Shown here in pieces: positions 9,712 through 39,965 of a stretch of DNA of 64,000 nucleotides. How positions within the stretch are numbered: the stretch's first letter is position 1; every line of letters begins with the position of its first letter. Location: positions 134,864-198,863 of the forward strand of contig CBDCYR010000009.1 in NCBI GenBank assembly GCA_965224275.1. Direction: 5' to 3'. A program made the translations under genes and the position numbers. The notes under the pieces were generated by a model. That model had not been told where the DNA came from, searched no databases, and was given only the letters and a program-made list of their open reading frames with translations. Origin of the DNA: Alphaproteobacteria bacterium. GTDB taxonomy: Bacteria > Pseudomonadota > Alphaproteobacteria > SHVV01.

Positions 9712-9801
9712 GGAGGGGTGGCCGAGTGGTCGAAGGCGCACGCTTGGAAAGCGTGTGTACGTGCAAGCGTACCGTGGGTTCGAATCCCACTCCCTCCGCC
9801 A
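9712..9801 (+). tRNA. tRNA-Ser (anticodon GGA), class II with long variable arm
   Basis: Cloverleaf readable by eye: acceptor GGAGGGG/UCCCUCC, D-arm GCCGAGUGGUCGAAGGCG, anticodon arm CACGC-UUGGAAA-GCGUG (GGA), long extra arm, T-arm GUGGG-UUCGAAUC-CCCAC, discriminator G and encoded CCA. Confidence 0.9.
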
Positions 9802-9890
9802 TCCGCCTCCGCCAAGGCTTCGGCGGGATTAGCTGAGTTTTCTCTGGAGGCGGATGTCACGCCGTAGCTTTAGCGAAGGCGGACCCACTG

Positions 9891-9935
9891 ATGCATTATG
9901 TTTACATCTTAGAGTCCGACTCGAAACTCTATGTT
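9891..9935 (+). pseudogene. 5' fragment (MHYVYILESDSKLYV) of a GIY-YIG nuclease family (UPF0213/COG2827-like) gene interrupted by an IS insertion
   Basis: N-terminal GIY-YIG signature YVYIL...KLYVG; the reading frame continues seamlessly into 10880..11065 once the about 944-bp insertion is removed. Confidence 0.7.
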
Positions 9936-10762
9936 TGATAACAGTACCTTGCGAGCCGCCTTGTGAGGAGTCGGATGTTGGCGACAAGAATCCATGCCTG
10001 TGCGGAGGCGATTGATTTCTCCCAATCCTTGGCCAGTCGACGGCATCGGTTGAGCCAGGCGAAGGTCCTCTCGACGACCCATCGTCTGGGCAGGAGCTCG
10101 AAGCCCTGGGCGGTGTCTGAGCGCTTGATGATCTCGAGCTTCCAGCGGCCGATGTCCTCAAGGGCGCCCTCGAGTTTCGGTCCCGCGTAGGCGGCGTCGG
10201 CGAAGAGGTGACGCAGCCGGGGGAAGCGATGACGGATCGATTTGAGGACCTCGGGCGCGCCGTCGCGGTCCTGGATATCGGCTGCGTGCACGATCAGGCC
10301 GACCAGCAGGCCGAGTGTATCGGTGACGATGTGACGCTTGCGGCCCTTGATCTTCTTGCCCGCGTCATAGCCCCGAACACCACCGCTTTCCGTGGTTTTC
10401 ACGCTCTGGCTGTCGATCACCCCGGCGCTCGGGCCGGCCTCGCGTCCTTCCAGCTCCCGGGCCGCCATGACCAGGTGATGGTTGATGCTCTCCAGCAGGC
10501 CGTTGGAGCGCCAGTCGTAGAAATAGCGCTGGACCGTGGAAGGCGGAGGGAAGTCGTTCGGCAACATCGCCCACTGGCAGCCCGTCGAGGCCATGTACAT
10601 GACCGCATCCATGACATGGCGCAGGTCCGTCGTCCTCGGCCGGCCGATCTTCTTGCGCGGCGGCATGAGCGGCGCGATCAACGCCCACTCTCGATCCGTC
10701 AGGTCGCTTGCGTAGCGCCCGCCACGGCGCTCATAATTCGGGCGAGTGATTTCGGTCCACAT
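9929..10762 (-). CDS. IS5-family DDE transposase
   Basis: 277 aa from MWTEITRPNYERRGG with a GAGGAGG Shine-Dalgarno; IS5/IS427-type DDE transposase sequence (DREWALIAPLMPP...YDAGKKIKGRKRHIVTDTLGLLVGLIVHAADIQDRDGA...WVVERTFAWLNRCRRLAKDWE); its stop codon lies in the junction 8-mer. Confidence 0.85.
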   Translation of the reverse strand: MWTEITRPNYERRGGRYASDLTDREWALIAPLMPPRKKIGRPRTTDLRHVMDAVMYMASTGCQWAMLPNDFPPPSTVQRYFYDWRSNGLLESINHHLVMAARELEGREAGPSAGVIDSQSVKTTESGGVRGYDAGKKIKGRKRHIVTDTLGLLVGLIVHAADIQDRDGAPEVLKSIRHRFPRLRHLFADAAYAGPKLEGALEDIGRWKLEIIKRSDTAQGFELLPRRWVVERTFAWLNRCRRLAKDWEKSIASAQAWILVANIRLLTRRLARYCYQT

Positions 10763-10879
10763 GTTGTGCCTCCTCGTTTGCTTTGACACAACCGAGTAAG
10801 CCACAACCGACTGAAATCACTCAACTAGTTTCGGGTTGGCCTCTTAGAAAGCGTCACAGATCCCGGGCATTTCTATGTT
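9929..10879 (-). mobile_element. IS5-family insertion sequence, about 0.94 kb, single transposase ORF
   Basis: Removing about 944 bp (9936..10879, plus or minus 8 bp) restores an intact GIY-YIG ORF; contains a DDE transposase gene; identical 8-mer tctatgtt at both junctions (9928-9935 and 10872-10879), so exact ends cannot be fixed; no convincing terminal inverted repeats found by eye. Confidence 0.7.
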
Positions 10880-11065
10880 GGTTTGACAGCGAATGTTGAG
10901 CGTCGTTTGCAGAATCACAATGCCGGCGGTTCCACTCACACCGCAAAGTACCGGCCATGGAAACTTTCGACGTTTATCGGGTTTTCGGATCGTGCCAAGG
11001 CGCGTCGGTTTGAGCGGTATCTCAAGTCTGGCTCCGGACGCGCCTTCTCTAAGAAACACTTCTGA
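10880..11065 (+). pseudogene. 3' fragment of the IS-disrupted GIY-YIG nuclease family gene
   Basis: GLTANVERRLQNHNAGGSTHTAKYRPWKLSTFIGFSDRAKARRFERYLKSGSGRAFSKKHF matches the GIY-YIG/UPF0213 C-terminal half (ERRLxEHN...). Confidence 0.7.
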
Positions 11066-11106
11066 ATCATCATAGAGACGTTCGATTCACACCATGAAAG
11101 CCGCTA

Positions 11107-11811
11107 ATGCTTCGTCGCCGTACCCGGGTTGATGCTCTGATAGGTCCTGGCGGCGTTCCGGTCGTCGTGCAACGCACCAATCGTAAAAAGACGGTCGGGA
11201 TCATCGTTGAGAATGGGGGGGTCCGTATTCGGGCACCCAAACGCCTTGCAAATTGGCGAATCCAGGAACTTATTAACGATCGAGCGGAATGGATCAGCGC
11301 CAAGCTGCGCCGCCAAGCGGCGCGACCCGTCCCGTCCCCGCGATGCTACGCCAATGGCGAGGAGTTCCTCTATCTCGGCCAATCCCATCGGCTCATGATC
11401 GTCGACGACGAAGACCAGCCGATCACGATCGAAAACGATTGCCTAGTGGCGCCTCGATCGCTCGATCCGGCTTCGCGTATTGCGGCGTGGTACCGGCGCC
11501 AGGCCGAGATCGTCTTGCGTGAAACCACAGACCGATTCGCGCTACTTATCGGGGTTGTCCCACGCTCGGTCACGGTGCGGGAGTACAAGAGCCAGTGGGG
11601 GAGCTGCAATTCACGGGGTGACGTCCGCTACAATACGCGGCTCATCCTAGCGCCCATCGATGTCGTCGAATACGTGGTGGTTCACGAACTCGCGCACTTG
11701 CTCCATCTCAATCATTCGCCGCGCTATTGGGAGCGCGTGAGCGCTATCATTCCTGATCACCGGGAACGGCGAAAATGGCTTAGGAAAAACGGAGCAACGC
11801 TCCAGATCTGA
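11107..11811 (+). CDS. M48-family zinc metallohydrolase (YgjP/DUF45-like)
   Basis: HEXXH-type motif VVVHELAHLLHLNHSPRYWE near the C-terminus, typical of the YgjP/DUF45 family; 234 aa. Confidence 0.7.
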   Translation: MLRRRTRVDALIGPGGVPVVVQRTNRKKTVGIIVENGGVRIRAPKRLANWRIQELINDRAEWISAKLRRQAARPVPSPRCYANGEEFLYLGQSHRLMIVDDEDQPITIENDCLVAPRSLDPASRIAAWYRRQAEIVLRETTDRFALLIGVVPRSVTVREYKSQWGSCNSRGDVRYNTRLILAPIDVVEYVVVHELAHLLHLNHSPRYWERVSAIIPDHRERRKWLRKNGATLQI

Positions 11812-11880
11812 GCCGCCCGCTGGAGATGGTTAGGTTCGCCAGGGCTTTCCCGTGGCCGCGCTATCGACTCTTGTGGTTCG

Positions 11881-12519
11881 TTGGATCGAGTACGACAATT
11901 TTTCGAATTGGGGGAATTAGAGATGACGGATGCATACGGACTGTACGAGTTTGTCGACGAGGTGCGTCGCTGTATCGCCCAACAGCAATCGCCGGCGGCA
12001 GTGTTGGAGGCTGTGTCTCCCGGGTTTGAACGTTTGCTCGCGAACCCGACCTTCCTGCGCGAAAAGATCGAGGAAGTTGGGGTCCATAGCGACGAAGTCT
12101 GTTTGCACGCGGAGCCCAATAACGGCTTTGTCGTGCTTGCTCGCGGCGTTTCGCAGAAGCAGACCTATCAGGGAAAGTCGCATGCCGTCGTGCCGCATGA
12201 TCACGGCCCGTTGTGGGCGCTGTATGGCATTTACGAGGGCAGCTCCAACCTGCAGCGCTGGGAGCCGGATGCGTCAGAACAATCCGGTCCGTTTCCGGGG
12301 CTGAAATTGGCATCCGAGCGCCCCGTAAGCCCCGGTGGGATGGATGCGATCGAACCCCACAACATGCATTTACCGGTGCACACCCCAGGGGCTGGCACGA
12401 TCATCATTGTGGTTTACGACCATCCGTTGGATGCAGTTGTGCGCCGCGGCTACGTCGCGTCCGCGAAAACGGTGACCGATTTCCAAGGCATTTTTCCACC
12501 GCTCGAACTACCCACATAG
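11881..12519 (+). CDS. hypothetical protein, cupin-like (possible thiol dioxygenase-like fold)
   Basis: 212-aa ORF with His-containing beta-strand motifs (HSDEVCLHAEP...HAVVPHDHG...HNMHLPVHTPGAG); true start may be Met15 at 11923. Confidence 0.45.
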   Translation: MDRVRQFFELGELEMTDAYGLYEFVDEVRRCIAQQQSPAAVLEAVSPGFERLLANPTFLREKIEEVGVHSDEVCLHAEPNNGFVVLARGVSQKQTYQGKSHAVVPHDHGPLWALYGIYEGSSNLQRWEPDASEQSGPFPGLKLASERPVSPGGMDAIEPHNMHLPVHTPGAGTIIIVVYDHPLDAVVRRGYVASAKTVTDFQGIFPPLELPT

Positions 12520-12704: not shown

Positions 12705-13025
12705 CTATGCCGTGCGATGGATGAGGTGGTAGCCAAATGCGGTTTCGACGACGTCACTGATCTCGCCGACACCCATCCCGAAGGCGGCCTGTTCGAATTC
12801 CGGCACCATCATGCCACGGCCAAAATCACCGAGTTCGCCACCTTGGCTGCTGGACGGGCAATCAGAATGTTCTTTCGCGAGTTCGCTAAACTCGGCGCCG
12901 TCATCGATCTTTGCTTTAAGCCCGCCGATTTCTTCAAGCGCGTCCTCGCGCGAACGCGACGAACTCGCGTTTTGCGAACCGTCAAACGAAAGGAGAATGT
13001 GCGAAGCGCTAACTTGGTCGGTCAT
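12705..13025 (-). CDS. ppiC: parvulin-type peptidyl-prolyl cis-trans isomerase (PpiC-like)
   Basis: ASHILLSF...EFSELAKEHSDCPSSSQGGELGDFGRGMMVPEFEQAAFGM...GYHLIHR matches the E. coli PpiC pattern. Confidence 0.8.
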   Translation of the reverse strand: MTDQVSASHILLSFDGSQNASSSRSREDALEEIGGLKAKIDDGAEFSELAKEHSDCPSSSQGGELGDFGRGMMVPEFEQAAFGMGVGEISDVVETAFGYHLIHRTA

Positions 13026-13180: not shown

Positions 13181-13720
13181 TCAGCCCGATGTGTATGTCT
13201 TCACCGGTGAGTCGTCCATAAATGCCAGGTGTTCGTACTCGACCAGTTCGAGTTGATTGCCCCACGGATCGAGGAAATAGTTCACGCGCAAACCGGCGCA
13301 CGGGCCATCGTCGAGGACAATAGGTCCGGCCATCACCCGACACCCGTTTTCAGCGAGATAGGTTTTTGCAACCTCAAGGTCGGTTACCTTGAAGGCGAGG
13401 TGATGGCCGCCATAATCGCAATTACGCGGCGGCGTGGTGCTGCGATCGTCGGGCTTGTCGTATTGGAACAGCTCGAGCATGAGGTTCGGTCCGACCTGCA
13501 GCATCGCGATTGTCAATCGGGCGCCGACAACGTTGAGGTGGGCCTCGGTCCAACCGCGACCATCGTCCATCGGCGGGATCTCGGCGTTGTCGAACGGGCC
13601 GAGCCGATAGAGCTCGGTACCGCCAATTACCTGGCTATAGAAGGCAACTGCGTCGTCTAGGTTTGGTACGGTAATCGCCGTATGGTCGACATGCTGCAAT
13701 CCGGGTATCCCTCCAGCCAT
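13181..13720 (-). CDS. VOC family protein (glyoxalase/bleomycin resistance/extradiol dioxygenase fold)
   Basis: 179 aa; VOC-like N-terminus (LQHVDHTAITVPNLDDAVAFYSQVIGG); last gene of the dioxygenase operon. Confidence 0.65.
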   Translation of the reverse strand: MAGGIPGLQHVDHTAITVPNLDDAVAFYSQVIGGTELYRLGPFDNAEIPPMDDGRGWTEAHLNVVGARLTIAMLQVGPNLMLELFQYDKPDDRSTTPPRNCDYGGHHLAFKVTDLEVAKTYLAENGCRVMAGPIVLDDGPCAGLRVNYFLDPWGNQLELVEYEHLAFMDDSPVKTYTSG

Positions 13721-13753: not shown

Positions 13754-14212
13754 CTAAAGCGGTAGTGGCGACGGCATCGCCAGTAATCGTGTGCGCAGGG
13801 CCACGACGCGCTCGGTAATTTGCCAACGCAACCGAGAATGGTGCCAACAATCCTCGTAACGGGCGAGTGCGTAGCACGTCGTGCGACCGTCATCATCGGT
13901 ATGGTAGATGGCCACGGTTGACGAGGTCTGCGCATGATCTGTGTCGATGGTGATGCTATCTACCGCGATCAATCGGTTTTGTTGGTAACGCCGCCATTCG
14001 TGCTTGTGGAGCGTTTCGTAGCGCTCTTTGAGCTGGTTGCGATCGAGTTCCATCCAGACCATCGTATCGGGCAGTTCCGGCGCGTTGACTTCCACCCGGT
14101 AATTGCCGGACTCTTCGAACAAGTCGACAAACGACTGATAGGCGCAATCGTCGAGAAAGCGTGCCGAGGCGTGCACCAGCGAGCGCAGCATCTCTCGAGA
14201 CTCGGCGGTCAC
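13754..14212 (-). CDS. aromatic ring-hydroxylating dioxygenase beta (small) subunit, NTF2-like
   Basis: 152 aa, NTF2/SnoaL-like fold, directly downstream of the Rieske alpha subunit. Confidence 0.75.
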   Translation of the reverse strand: MTAESREMLRSLVHASARFLDDCAYQSFVDLFEESGNYRVEVNAPELPDTMVWMELDRNQLKERYETLHKHEWRRYQQNRLIAVDSITIDTDHAQTSSTVAIYHTDDDGRTTCYALARYEDCWHHSRLRWQITERVVALRTRLLAMPSPLPL

Positions 14213-14221
14213 TGACCCTGC

Positions 14222-15433
14222 CTAGGCCTGCGGTTGCGGTGACGCAGGTGGCGCATCGATGTCGTGCGGCTGGCGGCCAGTTTTGCGCTGCCATTCGGCG
14301 TAGAACGCGCGTAGCGTTGCATCGTCCATCGGGCCAAGATTCTCTTCACGAGCGATCATGCTGAAGGCGCTGGCGCCCGACGCCATGTTGCGCCATTGCG
14401 TTTCAACCGCCCAGATATCCTCGGGTAAGTTTCGGCCCATCGGCCCCCATACCTGGTTGTGTTGCGCGACACGTTGGCGTCGCACATCGGGTGGGTCACC
14501 CTTGAGGCCGAGGCCGCGACATTCCAGCAAGGTGCGGCCTGGAGCTATCGGGGTGAGCGAATCGATCCGTAGCACGGTCGAGCGGCAGTTCAGCATCATG
14601 TCGGGGAAGAGATCGACTACCAGGTGGCCGTTGGGAAGCATCCCCGGCAGCAGGTTTTCGTCGCGGGCGCCGAGATCGAGGCGGTCGTAGCCAATCGCGG
14701 CGTGTTCGAAAACCAGATGCCCATTGCGGTGCACGTGCCAGCGACGGTTACGGTACTCTTTCAGGCCAACCGCGGTCGTCCGGTTCAATAAATGGAGGAG
14801 CTCGTGATAGCCCTCCGCATTGGTTTCGACGAACAGCTTCCAGTTGGCGGCAAGTTCGGCGCGGTGCAGGTGAAAGACCTCGAATTCGGCATCCGCGAAC
14901 GGTCCCCGCAACTCTTCAACAATCTCCGATCCGAGAAAGTCGACAAGCGGTTCAACCTCATCGTCGAGGCAGACAAACACCAACCCGAACAGCTCCTCGG
15001 TTCGCACCGCTTGCAGCGAAACCTGTTCCGGCTTGAGTCCACTCGCGGCATAGCCATCGTGTTGCGGGATGGTGATGCATTGCCCACGGCTGTCATACGA
15101 CCACAAGTGGTAGAAGCAGTTGATGGTGTTGTTGGCCAACCGGCCGGCAGGTTCGCGAATCAATCGGGCACCGCGATGCGCGCACACATTAACAAACGTG
15201 CGAAGTTGGGCGTCGTCGCCGCGTACCACGATCAGTTGGCGGCCGGCGACAGTTACTAACCTAAAGTCACCGGGCTCGGGAAGTTCTCCCGCGCAACACA
15301 CGAATTTCCAGGTGGCGGCGAAGATCCGGTCGCGCTCAAGCGCAAATATTTCTTCGTCGGCATAGATGCGGTTGTCGAGGTAGTGCGACGGCGGAAGATC
15401 CCTAGCAATCCATCCGTCTACGGCGTTGGTCAT
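14222..15433 (-). CDS. Rieske (2Fe-2S) aromatic ring-hydroxylating dioxygenase alpha (large) subunit
   Basis: Rieske motif CAHRG...(17 aa)...CFYHLW and a C-terminal catalytic domain with mononuclear-iron His ligands (EGYHELLHLLN); 403 aa. Confidence 0.85.
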   Translation of the reverse strand: MTNAVDGWIARDLPPSHYLDNRIYADEEIFALERDRIFAATWKFVCCAGELPEPGDFRLVTVAGRQLIVVRGDDAQLRTFVNVCAHRGARLIREPAGRLANNTINCFYHLWSYDSRGQCITIPQHDGYAASGLKPEQVSLQAVRTEELFGLVFVCLDDEVEPLVDFLGSEIVEELRGPFADAEFEVFHLHRAELAANWKLFVETNAEGYHELLHLLNRTTAVGLKEYRNRRWHVHRNGHLVFEHAAIGYDRLDLGARDENLLPGMLPNGHLVVDLFPDMMLNCRSTVLRIDSLTPIAPGRTLLECRGLGLKGDPPDVRRQRVAQHNQVWGPMGRNLPEDIWAVETQWRNMASGASAFSMIAREENLGPMDDATLRAFYAEWQRKTGRQPHDIDAPPASPQPQA

Positions 15434-15499: not shown

Positions 15500-16192
15500 C
15501 TACTCGGCAGCCGCGCTTTCGAACAAGGTGCCGACGTAGAAGCCTCGTTTTTGCATCGATGCGATGAACTCATCTTCGAAATTCGCCGGCACCGAACCGA
15601 TAACACGCTCGTTGGCGAGGATCGCGTCGGACCACGCCTGAACCAGCGGGAACGCGCCGAGCAGGCCGGTATGAAGCCGTGCCTCGACGAAAGCAAAACG
15701 CTGCAGAAACGGCGCATAGGCGGCGTCAACAAGCGATAAAGTGTCGCCGTTGAAGTAGGGTCCAGAGCCTTCACGTTCTACGGAAAGAGCTTCTTCGAGT
15801 TTGGCCACGCGCTTGGCGGCAACCTCAAGTTTCTCGTCGATCTCGTCCTTCGATTTAGTCCAGTAAACGCCGCTGAGCCCGCTCGCGAAATCGGGCGCGA
15901 AATCCGTCCACGCCCGATTGCGGGCGCGTTTGATTGGATCAGCCGGGTGGAGCCGGGGCTCGGCCATCTCATCAAGGAACTCGGCAATGGCATTCGATTC
16001 GAACAGGGGCTGCTCGTCGACCGACAGCACCGGCACTTTGCCATGCGGAGATATCTCCAGGAACCAATCGGGCTTATCGCTCAGATTGATATAGGTAACG
16101 TCGAAATCGACCTGTTTGGCGCGCAAAACGATCACGGCGCGCTGGACCCAAGGTCACGTAAACGAGCTGATCAGATGGTATTTCTTTGTCAT
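15500..16192 (-). CDS. omega-class-like glutathione S-transferase with an in-frame TGA at the catalytic Cys position (candidate selenoprotein; alternatively a pseudogene or sequence error)
   Basis: From ATG 16192 (GAGGG Shine-Dalgarno 7 nt upstream) the frame reads MTKKYHLISSFT-[TGA at 16156-16154]-PWVQRAVIVLRAKQVDFDVTYINLSDKPDWFLEISPHGKVPVL..., the GST N-terminal thioredoxin fold with TGA where omega-class GSTs have the CPxxxR active-site Cys. The listed ORF (15500..16135, GTG start) is the part downstream of the TGA. Confidence 0.6.
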
Positions 16193-16299
16193 GGTATTTC
16201 CCTCTGCCGCCAACCATAAATGGGCGACAGATCCGGGTCAAAACCCTTTACGCGGTGATGTGGTGGAAATTCTGATGACGGCGGCGATCGCTTGGCGGC

Positions 16300-16842
16300 G
16301 TGCCTGCTCATAATGCTGATTTCAGTTACGTGCCTTTGGCATCGTCGAACTTGGCTCGGGCTGCCAGTGACGATCCGGTGGTGCTAACCATCGCCGGCGA
16401 CATCGCAAAATCAAATCGCGGCGCGACCGACGGATTCGCTGATGCCTTTTTCCGCTATCACGACATCACATTCGCTCGTGCGTTCGCCTTTACCGGTGGC
16501 GATCTCGAAAGGCTTGGAACCCATCAGTTGACGGCAACATATCCGGGAAAGGATCTGTCGGTGACGGTCGAAGGGCCGCGCCTCAGTGACGTATTGGACG
16601 CGGTCGGTGCGCGCGGCGAGACCGTTCACGTCCTGGCGTTTGATGGCTATTCAGCCGCAATACCGATCGCCGAGCTGCGCCGGTATCCCGTTGTTTTGGC
16701 GCTCAAACGAAACGGACGCTACCTCGATATCGGGGGACGCGGCCCGGCATGGGTGATCTATCCGTCCAACGAGTACCCGGAACTGGCGGACCGCGATGAT
16801 GCCAAATGGGTTTGGAGCGTGTTTTTCATCCGCGTCGAATGA
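16300..16842 (+). CDS. hypothetical protein with weak resemblance to the molybdopterin-binding oxidoreductase (sulfite-oxidase-like) domain
   Basis: 180-aa ORF; C-terminal pattern PVVLALKRNGRYL...GPAWVIYP resembles the Mo-oxidoreductase substrate domain; start and function uncertain. Confidence 0.4.
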   Translation: MPAHNADFSYVPLASSNLARAASDDPVVLTIAGDIAKSNRGATDGFADAFFRYHDITFARAFAFTGGDLERLGTHQLTATYPGKDLSVTVEGPRLSDVLDAVGARGETVHVLAFDGYSAAIPIAELRRYPVVLALKRNGRYLDIGGRGPAWVIYPSNEYPELADRDDAKWVWSVFFIRVE

Positions 16843-16848
16843 CGCGGT

Positions 16849-17211
16849 TTACACGGTCAGAATCTCGAGGATATGGCCATTGGGATCGCAAAAGTACACG
16901 CCTCGCCCACCTCGCCGGTGGTTGATCTCCATGTTGTCGACCTGGCGAGGGCCGCTGCCATAGACGATTCCCTCGCGCTTGATGCGGCTGAAGATTTCGT
17001 CGAATTCCGCGTTATCAACTTTGAACGCGTAGTGGTGATGGTGGAAGTCTTCGGCGTTGTCGAAGTCGAGCGTTAGCGCAGCGTTCACTCTGACCGGCGC
17101 AAAGTGCGATTGGGTTCCTTTGTAGGTGAGGCCGAAAATGCGCGCGAAAAACTCTGCCGACGCCACTTTGTCGTGGGCGGGAACGATGGTGTGGTTGAGT
17201 TCGATGGCCAC
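16849..17211 (-). CDS. VOC family protein (glyoxalase-like)
   Basis: 120 aa; VOC-like N-terminus (LNHTIVPAHDKVASAEFFARIFGL). Confidence 0.6.
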   Translation of the reverse strand: MAIELNHTIVPAHDKVASAEFFARIFGLTYKGTQSHFAPVRVNAALTLDFDNAEDFHHHHYAFKVDNAEFDEIFSRIKREGIVYGSGPRQVDNMEINHRRGGRGVYFCDPNGHILEILTV

Positions 17212-17399: not shown

Positions 17400-17789
17400 A
17401 TGACAGGAACGGAGAAGCTATCGGCTGACCAACGCGACTTGCGGGACTATGCGTTGTCGTTGCCGGGCGCGCATGAAGATTTCCCATGGGGCGATCGCGT
17501 CGCCAAAGTCGGCAAAAAGGTGTTCGCCTTTATGGGGCACGACGACAAGTCGGTGGGGGTATCGGTTGCCGTCAAATTGCCGCACAGCAGCACCGAGGCA
17601 TTGGCGCTCCCGTTTACCGAGCCAACCGGTCACGGCCTCGGACGCCACGGATGGGTGTCGGCGCGTTTCGCGCCCGACGAGCAGGCGTTGGTAAAACTTC
17701 TTAAGCAATGGATTTTGGAAAGTTACCGGGCGGTCGCGCCCAAACGCCTGATCGCCGAACTCGATCGCGGGGCCGAGTCGAACGACTAA
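17400..17789 (+). CDS. MmcQ/YjbR family DNA-binding protein
   Basis: 129 aa with the characteristic LPGAHEDFPWGDRVAKVGKKVFAFMGHDD motif. Confidence 0.7.
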   Translation: MTGTEKLSADQRDLRDYALSLPGAHEDFPWGDRVAKVGKKVFAFMGHDDKSVGVSVAVKLPHSSTEALALPFTEPTGHGLGRHGWVSARFAPDEQALVKLLKQWILESYRAVAPKRLIAELDRGAESND

Positions 17790-17791
17790 GT

Positions 17792-18331
17792 TTAAATCGG
17801 AATCGAAATCGGAAAGTGGAAGTCGTCGCAATTGATCACGGTGACTTTTTTGGAGCGGATCTTGAAGCTGGTTCCGTCGCGAAGAACGGCATACTCACAG
17901 CGTCCGCTAAATGCTCGTTGTTCCATCTCGGGGCGGTATTCGTGCATCACGAAGCGACAAGCGAACGCGTATTCTCCGGTCGCATCGTCAGCGGCGTTGA
18001 CGACAAAATTCCCTGCCACATGGGTCGTGCGGGTGTAGGGAATCTGAGCGTGGACGCGAGGGTGACGCAGCCGCTGAATGCGTAGATCCATAATTTCGCG
18101 GTCGTCGTAGAACAACGATAGCTCGTCGTCGGGACTCTCCTGATCGATGCGCGACGGCACCCAATAGTAACCGTCCTCCGTAAACAGATCGCGCCAGGCT
18201 TCGAAGTTGCGGCCGTCGAGCAATTCGAGCTCCGCGGTAACAAACTTCTCGAAGTCGCGAATCAGAAGCAACTCGTCGAGTCCGACGGGAAGATTGGCGG
18301 TCGCCGGCTTGGTGGGGGCAGCTTTGTTCAT
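17792..18331 (-). CDS. ring-hydroxylating dioxygenase beta-subunit-like / NTF2 (SnoaL-like) protein, orphan (no adjacent alpha subunit)
   Basis: 179 aa; FVTAELELLDGRNFEAWRDLFTEDGYYWVPS is the typical N-terminal motif of RHD small subunits. Confidence 0.65.
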   Translation of the reverse strand: MNKAAPTKPATANLPVGLDELLLIRDFEKFVTAELELLDGRNFEAWRDLFTEDGYYWVPSRIDQESPDDELSLFYDDREIMDLRIQRLRHPRVHAQIPYTRTTHVAGNFVVNAADDATGEYAFACRFVMHEYRPEMEQRAFSGRCEYAVLRDGTSFKIRSKKVTVINCDDFHFPISIPI

Positions 18332-18398: not shown

Positions 18399-19058
18399 CT
18401 AAATCTTTGGCGTATCGATGGTCCACGGTTCGGTGGCGGCGGCTCCGATCCAGGCCCGCACCGCGTCTGAGCCGATAAGCGCATCGCGATAATCTGCGGC
18501 GATCGCAGGCAAGCCAACACCGTAGGTGGCAAAGCGCGATGCCACCGGCGCGTACATCGCATCGGCGATGGAAAAACCGCCAAACAAGAATCCATCATCG
18601 TTGGATTTACCGAAGCGGGTCCGACAATGGTTCCATAACTCGACGATGCGATCGATGTCGTTTTGTGCGGTCTCCGACCAGTGCCAATCGCTGTGGCGGG
18701 CACGGCAATCCATCGGCAGGTCACGGCGCAGCGCCGCGAATCCGGCGTGCATTTCGTGAGCCACGGCGCGTGCATGGGCGCGCGCGTCAGCGTCAATCGG
18801 CCACATCGGTCGGGTTTGGTGGGTCTCGGCGACGTATTCGCAGATTGCCAGGGATTCCCAAACCGTCAGGTCGCCATCGTGCAAAACCGGTACCCGACCG
18901 GCCGGCGAATGCGCCCGGATACGCGCACCGCTATCGGCTTGGTCGAGCGGGATGACGACTTCCTCAAAGTCGATATCGAACTGGTTGAGCGCAACCCCAG
19001 CGCGCATCGACCAGGATGAGTAGTTCTTGTTTCCGAGAACGAGCGTTAATTGAGCCAC
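18399..19058 (-). CDS. glutathione S-transferase
   Basis: Start assigned to GTG 19058 (VAQLTLVLGNKNYSSWS, GGGAG Shine-Dalgarno 8 nt upstream); GST N-terminal (PVLHDGDLTVWESLAICEYVAE) and C-terminal helical domains. Confidence 0.8.
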   Translation of the reverse strand: MAQLTLVLGNKNYSSWSMRAGVALNQFDIDFEEVVIPLDQADSGARIRAHSPAGRVPVLHDGDLTVWESLAICEYVAETHQTRPMWPIDADARAHARAVAHEMHAGFAALRRDLPMDCRARHSDWHWSETAQNDIDRIVELWNHCRTRFGKSNDDGFLFGGFSIADAMYAPVASRFATYGVGLPAIAADYRDALIGSDAVRAWIGAAATEPWTIDTPKI

Positions 19059-26069: not shown

Positions 26070-27188
26070 TTAGAGCTCGCGGCGCTCGAAATCGATGCGC
26101 GGATCGATGATCACGTACATCAGGTCGCCAATGAGATTCAGAACCAGGCCCATCAGCGTGAAGACGAACATGGTGCCAAACATCACCGGGTAGTCGCGCG
26201 CGATCACCGATTGGAATCCAAGCAATCCGAGCCCGTCGAGTGAGAAGATGATCTCGGTCAGAAGCGCGCCGGTAAACAAAATGCCAATGAAGGCGCCGGG
26301 GAAGCCGGCGATAACGATCAGCATGGCATTGCGGAAAACGTGCCCGTAGAGCACCCGGTGCTCGCTCAGCCCTTTGGCGCGCGCCGTCATCACATACTGC
26401 ATGTTGATCTGATCGAGAAACGAGTTCTTGGTCAGCATCGTGAGACCGGCGAACCCACCGATGACCAGCGATAGGACCGGCAATGCAATGTGCCAGAAAT
26501 AGTCGAGGATCTTCTCGCCGAAGTTGAGCTCGCTGAAATTCTCGGAAAACAAGCCGCGCAGAGGAAACCAATCGAGATAACTGCCGCCGGCAAACACCAC
26601 GATCAAAAGTACGGCAAACAAGAAACTAGGGATGGCTTGCCCGACGATGATCACGCCGCTGGACCAAACGTCGAACCGGCTCCCGTCGCGCACGGCCTTG
26701 CGAATTCCCAGCGGGATCGAGATCAGATAGACGAGCAAGGTTGTCCAGATACCGAGCGAGATCGACACCGGCATCTTGTCGATCACCAGCTGCACGACCG
26801 ATCGGTCGCGGAAATAGCTGTTTCCGAAATCAAAGCGGATGTAGTTGCCCATCATCATCAGGAAACGCTCGTGGGCAGGCTTGTCGAAGCCGTACAGCTT
26901 CTCGATTTCCTTGATGAATTCGGGATCGAGGCCGCGGGCACCACGGTACTTGCTGGTGATACTGCTGCCGGACCCAGCCTGGGCTTGTAGGCGCTGGTTG
27001 GATTGAACTTCCGAGCCGCTGGCCCCACCGATCCGTGCGGTCGGATCAACCGCAGTGCCGCTGATCTGAGCGATCAGTTGCTCAACCGGACCGCCCGGCG
27101 CGACTTGGACCACAACAAAGTTGATCACCATAATCCCGAACAGGGTCGGGATGATGAGCAACAGGCGGCGGACGATATAAGCGAGCAT
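26070..27188 (-). CDS. yejB: ABC transporter permease, YejB type (microcin C / peptide uptake)
   Basis: 372 aa, closely parallels E. coli YejB along the whole length ([33 protein letters not shown]...RFDVWSS...[11 protein letters not shown]...TARAKGLSE...DPRIDFE). Confidence 0.85.
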
Positions 27189-39778: not shown

Positions 39779-39877
39779 GGTGGGGGCTGGCGGTGGACGG
39801 AACGCTCGCCAACCCGGTCAGGTCCGGAAGGAAGCAGCCGTAACGAGTTTGTCTCCGGGTCGCCTCACCAGTCCCCA
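39779..39877 (+). ncRNA. ffs: signal recognition particle RNA (4.5S RNA, small bacterial type)
   Basis: Contains the invariant domain IV sequence GGUCAGGUCCGGAAGGAAGCAGCC; 5' GUGGGGGCUGG pairs with 3' CCAGUCCCCAC (one G-U); located just upstream of dnaX. Confidence 0.9.
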
Positions 39878-39965
39878 CTGATTTGGTCGCTGCCCCTGGT
39901 TAGCTGCGCTTGATCCAGCTACCTTTTGGGCAATCCGTCAGAGTTCGGGAGTTCCGCGCGTCGCG

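Follow-up and report, generated by a model that had tools for sequence, protein, structure and literature searches.

The 64-kb stretch of alphaproteobacterial DNA analyzed here (contig CBDCYR010000009.1; the window hereafter, in whose own numbering all coordinates are given) carries, on its minus strand, a gene for a glutathione S-transferase (GST) in which the codon expected for the catalytic cysteine is an in-frame TGA, followed on the same strand by a cassette of Rieske oxygenase genes. Comparison with relatives indicates that this codon very probably specifies selenocysteine (Sec) in an omega-like GST. The elements of the gene, including a hairpin resembling a selenocysteine insertion sequence (SECIS), are as follows; positions within the RNA element are counted from the U of the UGA as nt 1.

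16213..16241, minus strand: promoter-like sequence TTGACC-17-TATGGT, upstream of the GST start, from a consensus scan
16200..16204, minus strand: Shine-Dalgarno sequence GAGGG, 7 nt ahead of the ATG, read from the sequence
15500..16192, minus strand: predicted Sec-GST coding sequence, 230 codons including UGA-13, plus TAG at 15500-15502; a two-domain GST
16192-16190, minus strand: start codon ATG, read from the sequence
16157..16192, minus strand: codons 1-12, MTKKYHLISSFT, predicted to be translated ahead of the UGA
16154..16156, minus strand: UGA codon 13, putative Sec codon at the catalytic Cys position, from the Sec/Cys alignment of relatives
16131..16144, minus strand: near-invariant 14-nt block CAGCGCGCCGUGAU, nt 13-26, comprising the 5' stem arm and the start of the loop with its G-U
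16119..16142, minus strand: SECIS-like hairpin, GCGCGC at 16142-16137 pairing with GCGCGC at 16124-16119 around the 12-nt loop CGUGAUCGUUUU

From the ATG, the frame reads MTKKYHLISSFT, TGA at 16156-16154 and PWVQRAVIVLRAKQV, and ends with TAG at 15502-15500; the start codon, the GAGGG and the in-frame TGA on which a preliminary description of this locus had built are all in place. Gene callers put the start at GTG 16135, yielding a 211-aa form (protein P0001) that lacks both strand beta-1 and the catalytic residue, and all public calls for the gene and its relatives are likewise shortened, to 207-213 aa. In protein searches, close homologs fall into 2 length classes, one of 207-213 aa that starts with MIVLRAK or MRAKQV, just past the TGA position, and one of 230-233 aa that reads SSxTCPWVQR. 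Because the public gene calls drop the catalytic residue, the predicted selenoprotein is invisible in those databases. The promoter-like sequence matches 9 of 12 consensus positions, such sites being no commoner in the region than in shuffles, and is only a plausible promoter of the GST gene.

Relatives of the gene were collected as the best 80 matches of each of 2 scans, one of species-representative bacterial genomes (80 loci from metagenome-assembled genomes of Alpha- and Gammaproteobacteria, 61-95% identical) and one of metagenomes, seeded with Cys forms (76 loci). Codon 13 is TGA in 78 and TGC/TGT in 2 of the genome loci; the corresponding figures for the metagenome loci are 53 and 23. 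Removal of duplicates left 151 distinct relatives, 129 with TGA (Sec forms) and 22 with TGC/TGT (Cys forms), none having TAA or TAG at this codon. The Sec/Cys pair that the preliminary description had suspected at the catalytic residue is thus borne out, and its question of whether orthologs carry Cys or TGA at codon 13 is answered by a large majority of TGA (129/151), the rest having Cys. In all 129 Sec forms codon 13 is the first in-frame stop, and the residues ahead of it are conserved (Y5, H6, L7, S9, S10, and T12 at 94-100%, I8 at 83%, with residue 11 variable) while their codons drift, T12 being written with 4 different codons and Y5 as TAC in 64 and TAT in 58 sequences. Since the amino acids are kept and the codons vary, the segment before the TGA is likely translated in frame with the downstream part, and the upstream peptide is under purifying selection. 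The protein sequence downstream of the UGA is conserved throughout the alignment. The code has not been reassigned, as 26 of the window's 61 putative genes end in TGA, and no other convincing in-frame-TGA candidate was found in the window. A neighbor-joining tree of the 151 family members requires at least 3 switches between Sec and Cys: most Cys forms fall in a single clade, and 2 isolated Cys forms (L029 and L135) have Sec forms as their nearest relatives.

The second line of evidence is the RNA immediately 3' of the UGA. The first GCGCGC follows the UGA after 11 nt, and the 14-nt block that includes it occurs in exact form in 119 of 129 Sec forms but only 1 of 22 Cys forms (Fisher p = 3e-17); in Alpha- and Gammaproteobacteria alike it hardly changes. 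At codons 18-20, the Sec forms have a third-position entropy of 0.33-0.38 bit, as against 1.2-1.7 bit for the Cys forms; the same Sec sequences show 0.9-1.9 bit at the majority of their other codons. Codons 17-20 and 23 (CAG CGC GCC GUG ... UUG) have synonymous positions that are 95-100% fixed in Sec forms, whereas third positions elsewhere in these sequences are typically fixed at 40-80%. All six core pairs, from G15-C38 to C20-G33, form in 122/129 Sec and 6/22 Cys forms. These comparisons show that constraint at the nucleotide level accompanies the UGA, and the conserved block is most naturally read as a SelB-binding SECIS. Five Sec forms (L127, L131, L133, L134, and L138) deviate from the block, reading CAGCGUGCAGUAAU... 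over nt 13-40, with CUG at codon 23; there, C21->A and U31->C add the pairs A21-U32 and G22-C31 at the top of the stem, which is the sole hint of compensatory evolution in the hairpin. A second window gene with the same block was sought and rejected: the match at 26379-26390, with 1 mismatch, is not preceded by a UGA and agrees with chance expectation.

The bacterial SECIS consensus comprises a stem of 4-16 bp and, at 16-37 nt from the UGA, a loop of 3-9 nt with a G as its first or second base (PMC13188914). The window hairpin agrees with it in its 6-bp stem, the 17 nt from UGA to loop, and a loop that opens C-G-U (G second, then U). Several observations nevertheless weigh against a SECIS and, more generally, against Sec. 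The loop has 12 nt rather than 3-9 and is shortened only if nt 21-22 pair with nt 31-32, which is true of some sequences only. The folding energy is ordinary for 59% G+C (z = -0.07 against dinucleotide shuffles, 88 of 200 of which fold at least as well) and alike in Sec and Cys forms. By itself, then, the hairpin does not exceed chance expectation, and it gains meaning solely when sequences are compared; we set the energy aside as evidence and used site-specific conservation instead. No compensatory (double-sided) covariation was found in the alignment of the stem, which is nearly invariant, and column shuffles do as well. The GC repeat also permits a second register, 2 nt away, which pairs in 77.5% compared with 81.5% and is the one that RNAalifold favors. 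Rfam searches over the SECIS region gave no family match, a permissive E-value yielding a chance small nucleolar RNA match only. Regarding the decoding machinery, ARAGORN and Rfam detected only a tRNA-Ser and the signal recognition particle (SRP) RNA in the window and no tRNA-Sec; tblastn of the window and the fetched loci with E. coli SelA, SelB, and SelD sequences retrieved only the GTPase domain of LepA. Neither the window nor any of the fetched loci contains selA, selB, selD, or a tRNA-Sec gene. Finally, the family is known from bioinformatics alone, selenium having been shown experimentally in no member (PMC13188914). On the hairpin, the preliminary description therefore stands in part: the GC stem-loop is present 11 nt after the UGA and the constraint on it is UGA-specific, but its energy is at chance level, and the comparison with SECIS models that the description called for favors it on stem, spacing, and G-U and disfavors it on the 12-nt loop, covariation, and register.

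Whether these reservations make room for another explanation depends on what the TGA would otherwise be. It is very unlikely that the TGA is a true stop, in a pseudogene or in a gene for a GST shortened at its N-terminus, with any product made from GTG 16135 (211 aa). The callers in every source database did choose that form, or its 207-213-aa counterpart in relatives, and no Sec machinery was found in the window or the fetched loci. Yet the 12 upstream codons, preceded by an ATG and a ribosome-binding site, keep their amino acids through the synonymous drift of 129 sequences, the stop is invariably TGA, with neither TAA nor TAG, across sequences merely 60-95% identical, and full-length Cys homologs align right through the region, whereas in the 211-aa product the thioredoxin fold would be left without beta-1 and without its catalytic residue. 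Smaller still, and close to negligible, is the chance that assembly or base calling turned a TGC or TGT into this TGA: although the window comes from a metagenome assembled from long reads, and an apparent frameshift splits the Rieske alpha gene in one assembly of the organism (L081), the same TGA is found in three independent assemblies of the window's organism (L081-L083) and in 128 other distinct orthologs from unrelated projects. Both possibilities, and the GTG start, had been raised in the preliminary description; three assemblies with TGA and 129 TGA forms exclude them in practice.

Slightly more room, though little, is left for a UGA that is recoded but not as Sec, either by near-cognate read-through (Trp or Cys) or by insertion of Cys via the Sec pathway, the conserved RNA block then acting as a read-through promoter or a translational attenuator. 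The block proves a constraint on RNA or DNA rather than its ligand, the loop is bigger than in consensus SECIS elements, and no covariation fixes the fold. Against such recoding, residue 13 is Cys, and redox-active, in all non-TGA homologs, as is typical of Sec/Cys pairs; the element matches bacterial SECIS elements in its position and in the G-U of its loop; and specialists have independently classed the family as a selenoprotein. Moreover, we know of no SECIS-independent read-through elements of such kind in Proteobacteria. Taken together, we place the probability that UGA-13 is a genuine Sec codon in an omega-like GST at about 90%, judging from the comparative sequence data.

Predicted Sec-GSTs have in fact been on record for some time. 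A GST with 4 sequences was among the 15 new selenoprotein families in the 2005 Sargasso Sea paper of Zhang, Fomenko and Gladyshev (PMC1088965), the supplement of which contains the sequences MTSKYHLISFVTuPWVQRAVIVLRAKNVEF... and MAKNIHLISSVTuPWVQRAVIVLRTKEVEF.... With the second of these, AACY01726075, the window protein shares 69% identity across 157 aa (E 4e-82) and the UPWVQRAVIVLR motif; its TGA occupies nt 37-39 of the open reading frame (ORF), the same position and motif as in the published members. The GOS analysis of 2008 counted 12 Sec GSTs (PMC2398784), and reviews of 2022 and 2026 list a 'GST-like protein' (PF13409) among functionally uncharacterized selenoproteins (PMC9312934, PMC13188914). 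By its sequence, then, the window gene belongs to a family of selenoproteins that has been predicted since 2005. The preliminary description had thought a Sec-dependent thiol transferase in aromatic catabolism unusual; with UPWVQR GSTs published in 2005 and in later lists, the gene is less so than was assumed.

To place the protein among GSTs, the 230-aa product was submitted to a domain search with Cys at codon 13. Pfam returned GST_N_2 (E 2.9e-18, residues 12-75) and GST_C_2 (E 3.5e-10), GST_C also being matched; there is no dedicated NCBIfam model for Sec-GST, and only generic GST models of that collection matched, far under their cut-offs. The nearest solved structures by sequence are Leishmania TDR1 (E 9e-28), GSTO1 (E 1e-18 to 3e-21), Drosophila pyrimidodiazepine synthase, and plant dehydroascorbate reductases (DHARs), in all of which the catalytic Cys of a C-P-F motif aligns with U13. 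The glutathione-site residues cis-Pro P54 (KVPVL) and E65-S66 (FESNAI) are invariant in the family. In the AlphaFold model of a 68%-identical Cys homolog (predicted local distance difference test score 85), strand beta-1 spans residues 5-9 and helix alpha-1 residues 14-25, so that residue 13 lies between the two and caps the helix; in Foldseek searches with the model of the Cys homolog, tau and omega GSTs were the best PDB matches (template modeling score 0.7-0.8). The protein thus has the hallmarks of the GST superfamily, namely, a thioredoxin-like N-domain, a helical C-domain, and the cis-Pro and Glu-Ser residues. Class assignment is another matter. Membership in a GST class usually needs about 40% identity, and the omega class has a proline-rich N-terminal extension of ~19 residues. 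The window protein is 22-24% identical to GSTO1 and GSTO2 and lacks the extension, beta-1 beginning at residue 5; it is omega-like in its probable mechanism but falls outside the omega class. Of the omega-class-like GST first proposed, the alignment of U13-P-W with C-P-F therefore holds, whereas the identity and the extension of the class are wanting.

The enzyme's mode of action is most likely that of omega, lambda, and DHAR-type GSTs. From the features it shares with Cys-GSTs, the expected chemistry is thiol transfer or reduction via a mixed enzyme-glutathione intermediate. Translation would begin at ATG 16192 and bring the ribosome to UGA-13, where SelB-GTP-Sec-tRNA(Sec), bound to the hairpin 11 nt downstream, would have Sec inserted and termination avoided, a step proposed from the conserved RNA block and the established bacterial mechanism. 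In the folded enzyme, the selenolate at the N-terminus of alpha-1 would attack a glutathionylated or oxidized substrate and form an enzyme Se-S-glutathione intermediate, which a second glutathione would resolve, giving glutathione disulfide. Homology and the conserved glutathione-site residues would accordingly make this a thiol-transferase, reductase, or deglutathionylation reaction rather than conjugation.

The genes that follow the GST, the first three of which form a module, are these.

14222..15433, minus strand: Rieske oxygenase alpha subunit (403 aa), Pfam Rieske and Ring_hydroxyl_A, 66 nt past the GST stop
13754..14212, minus strand: beta-like small subunit, SnoaL_4 / Ring_hydroxyl_B
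13181..13720, minus strand: vicinal oxygen chelate (VOC)/glyoxalase-fold protein (179 aa), third gene of the module, from a domain match
12705-13025, minus strand: parvulin-type peptidyl-prolyl isomerase (PPIase), downstream of the VOC gene

Outside the window and its assemblies, the GST and Rieske genes were seen side by side at 2 further loci only, L164 and L166, which have the same order GST(TGA)-alpha-beta-VOC, with the GST 85-87% and the Rieske alpha 81-82% identical; L164 runs on into the PPIase gene, and the contig of L166 stops within the third gene. In the closest species-level relative (L001, 95% amino acid identity), the GST is followed directly by the PPIase, and the alpha-beta-VOC block, the 2 small ORFs upstream of the GST, and a second GST are all missing. 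We considered a single recent insertion of the cassette in the window genome and rejected it in this simple form, as L164 and L166 (GST 85-87%) have the cassette and the closer L001 does not. No Rieske alpha follows the GST at any of the other 116 loci (99 Sec and 17 Cys) whose sequence runs on for 1.4 kb or more past the GST, and no neighbor is common to more than about 10 of 156 loci. The description of the GST as heading a Rieske operon is thus apt for the window genome, L164, and L166, and not for the family or for L001. Elsewhere, the alpha-beta-VOC genes occur without the Sec-GST: in L167 a nu-like Cys-less GST comes after them, in L168 a thiolase, and on a third contig a pirin gene takes the place of VOC in the alpha-beta module; the trio is a mobile-looking module. 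The GST beside the cassette of L167, being Cys-less and nu-like, was rejected as a member of the same family. The Rieske neighborhood of the Sec-GST consequently appears to be a local acquisition of a small clade and not a family feature.

The Rieske alpha scores far under the cut-offs of the named NCBIfam models (AndAc, GbcA, and anthranilate and benzoate dioxygenases; for AndAc, 136 bits compared with 750), and its nearest structures are generic ring-hydroxylating oxygenases. Several alpha homologs of 52-68% identity (including P0127, P0130, and P0140) bear the JGI label 'methanesulfonate monooxygenase large subunit', an identity that we did not adopt for the window protein in view of its CxH-19-CxxH Rieske motif (19-residue spacer) and its scores far under the named-family cut-off. 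In L081, the Rieske alpha is split into ORFs of 92 and 313 aa (10703-11919), which is probably a long-read frameshift error and not biology. Neither a reductase nor a ferredoxin gene is present in the cluster. The 66 nt that separate the GST from alpha hold no terminator-like site, which makes co-transcription possible, and the GST may be co-transcribed with the Rieske module in the window genome and a few close relatives. It is conceivable, if rather unlikely, that in this small alphaproteobacterial clade the Sec-GST was taken into a Rieske alpha-beta-VOC operon as its leading gene and carries out a selenium-dependent thiol-transferase or deglutathionylation step in substrate breakdown; it would then, for example, rescue glutathione adducts of a quinone/hydroquinone intermediate, and substrate catabolism would depend on selenium supply. 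Any functional link between the GST and the Rieske genes is only hypothetical.

On the upstream side, the window has a YjbR gene on the plus strand (17400-17789) and, on the minus strand, an orphan gene for a 179-aa Ring_hydroxyl_B/SnoaL-like protein (17792-18331). The pair is conserved upstream of the Sec-GST in L001, L002, L165, and L166, the SnoaL-like gene also in L164, and is a stabler neighbor of the Sec-GST than the Rieske alpha. Of the small ORFs, the one at 16849-17211 (minus strand), with a faint glyoxalase match, has counterparts in L164, L165, and L166, and the one at 16300-16842 (plus strand), with a weak Oxidored_molyb match, in L165 and L166; L164 and L166 also have the alpha-beta-VOC block, and the contig of L165 ends at the GST. 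A second GST, Cys-less and nu/YfcF-like with an NYSSWS motif, lies 2.2 kb upstream (18399-19058, minus strand) and is missing from L001. Farther away, an IS4/IS5-family DDE transposase ORF (9929-10804, minus strand) stands directly beside tRNA-Ser(gga) (9712-9801), and in the L082 assembly a phage-type integrase and an AlpA gene are found where the other two assemblies have lepA; the region near 9712-10804 is a strain-variable island. The bacterial small SRP RNA at 39782-39879 (plus strand; Rfam RF00169, 62.9 bits) confirms the chromosomal context.

Nothing here overturns current understanding, and the analysis adds to a known family: the preponderance of Sec over Cys in the nearest relatives sampled, from Alpha- and Gammaproteobacteria of marine and sediment origin (78:2 among the best 80 matches in species-representative genomes), the near-invariant 14-nt putative SECIS block, the at least 3 Sec/Cys switches, and the Rieske linkage in one small clade. 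The block offers a clean test case for SelB-SECIS specificity beyond E. coli, and an omega-like GST with Sec for Cys would amount to a natural experiment on the benefit of selenium in thiol-transferase chemistry.

Comparison with known systems places the locus as follows. With the marine GST-like selenoprotein family, the window gene shares the motif (K)YHLISSxT-U-PWVQRAVIVLR, the UGA at codon 12-13, the PF13409/COG0625 assignment, the existence of Cys homologs, and a hairpin after the UGA; it differs in nothing essential and is another member. Like the bacterial SECIS elements of the E. coli fdhF type and the bSECISearch consensus, its RNA element is an in-frame, G+C-rich hairpin of 6 bp directly 3' of the UGA, with 17 nt between UGA and loop and a G followed by U at the loop start. 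Unlike them, it has a 12-nt loop, no evident bulged U, an ambiguous register, and no Rfam model, its structure being supported through sequence conservation alone. Omega GSTs (GSTO1/GSTO2 and pyrimidodiazepine synthase), TDR1, DHAR, and lambda GSTs have in common with the window protein a thioredoxin-like N-domain and a helical C-domain, the cis-Pro and Glu-Ser residues of the glutathione site, and a catalytic residue at the start of alpha-1, their C-P-aromatic motif aligning with U13; by contrast, the window protein has predicted Sec for Cys, UPW for CPF, and 22-27% identity to these enzymes, and the Ser-type tau-class GSTs fit its fold as well as the omega class does. GSTs are also known from aromatic-catabolic clusters, such as BphK in bph operons and the PcpF/xi-class glutathionyl-hydroquinone reductases. 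The window GST resembles these in lying directly upstream of the Rieske alpha/beta and VOC genes with no terminator-like site between, and other GST classes are likewise found near the same module (18399-19058 in the window, and L167), whereas its linkage, confined to a small clade and accompanied by neither a reductase nor a ferredoxin gene, sets it apart from the BphK and PcpF-type clusters.

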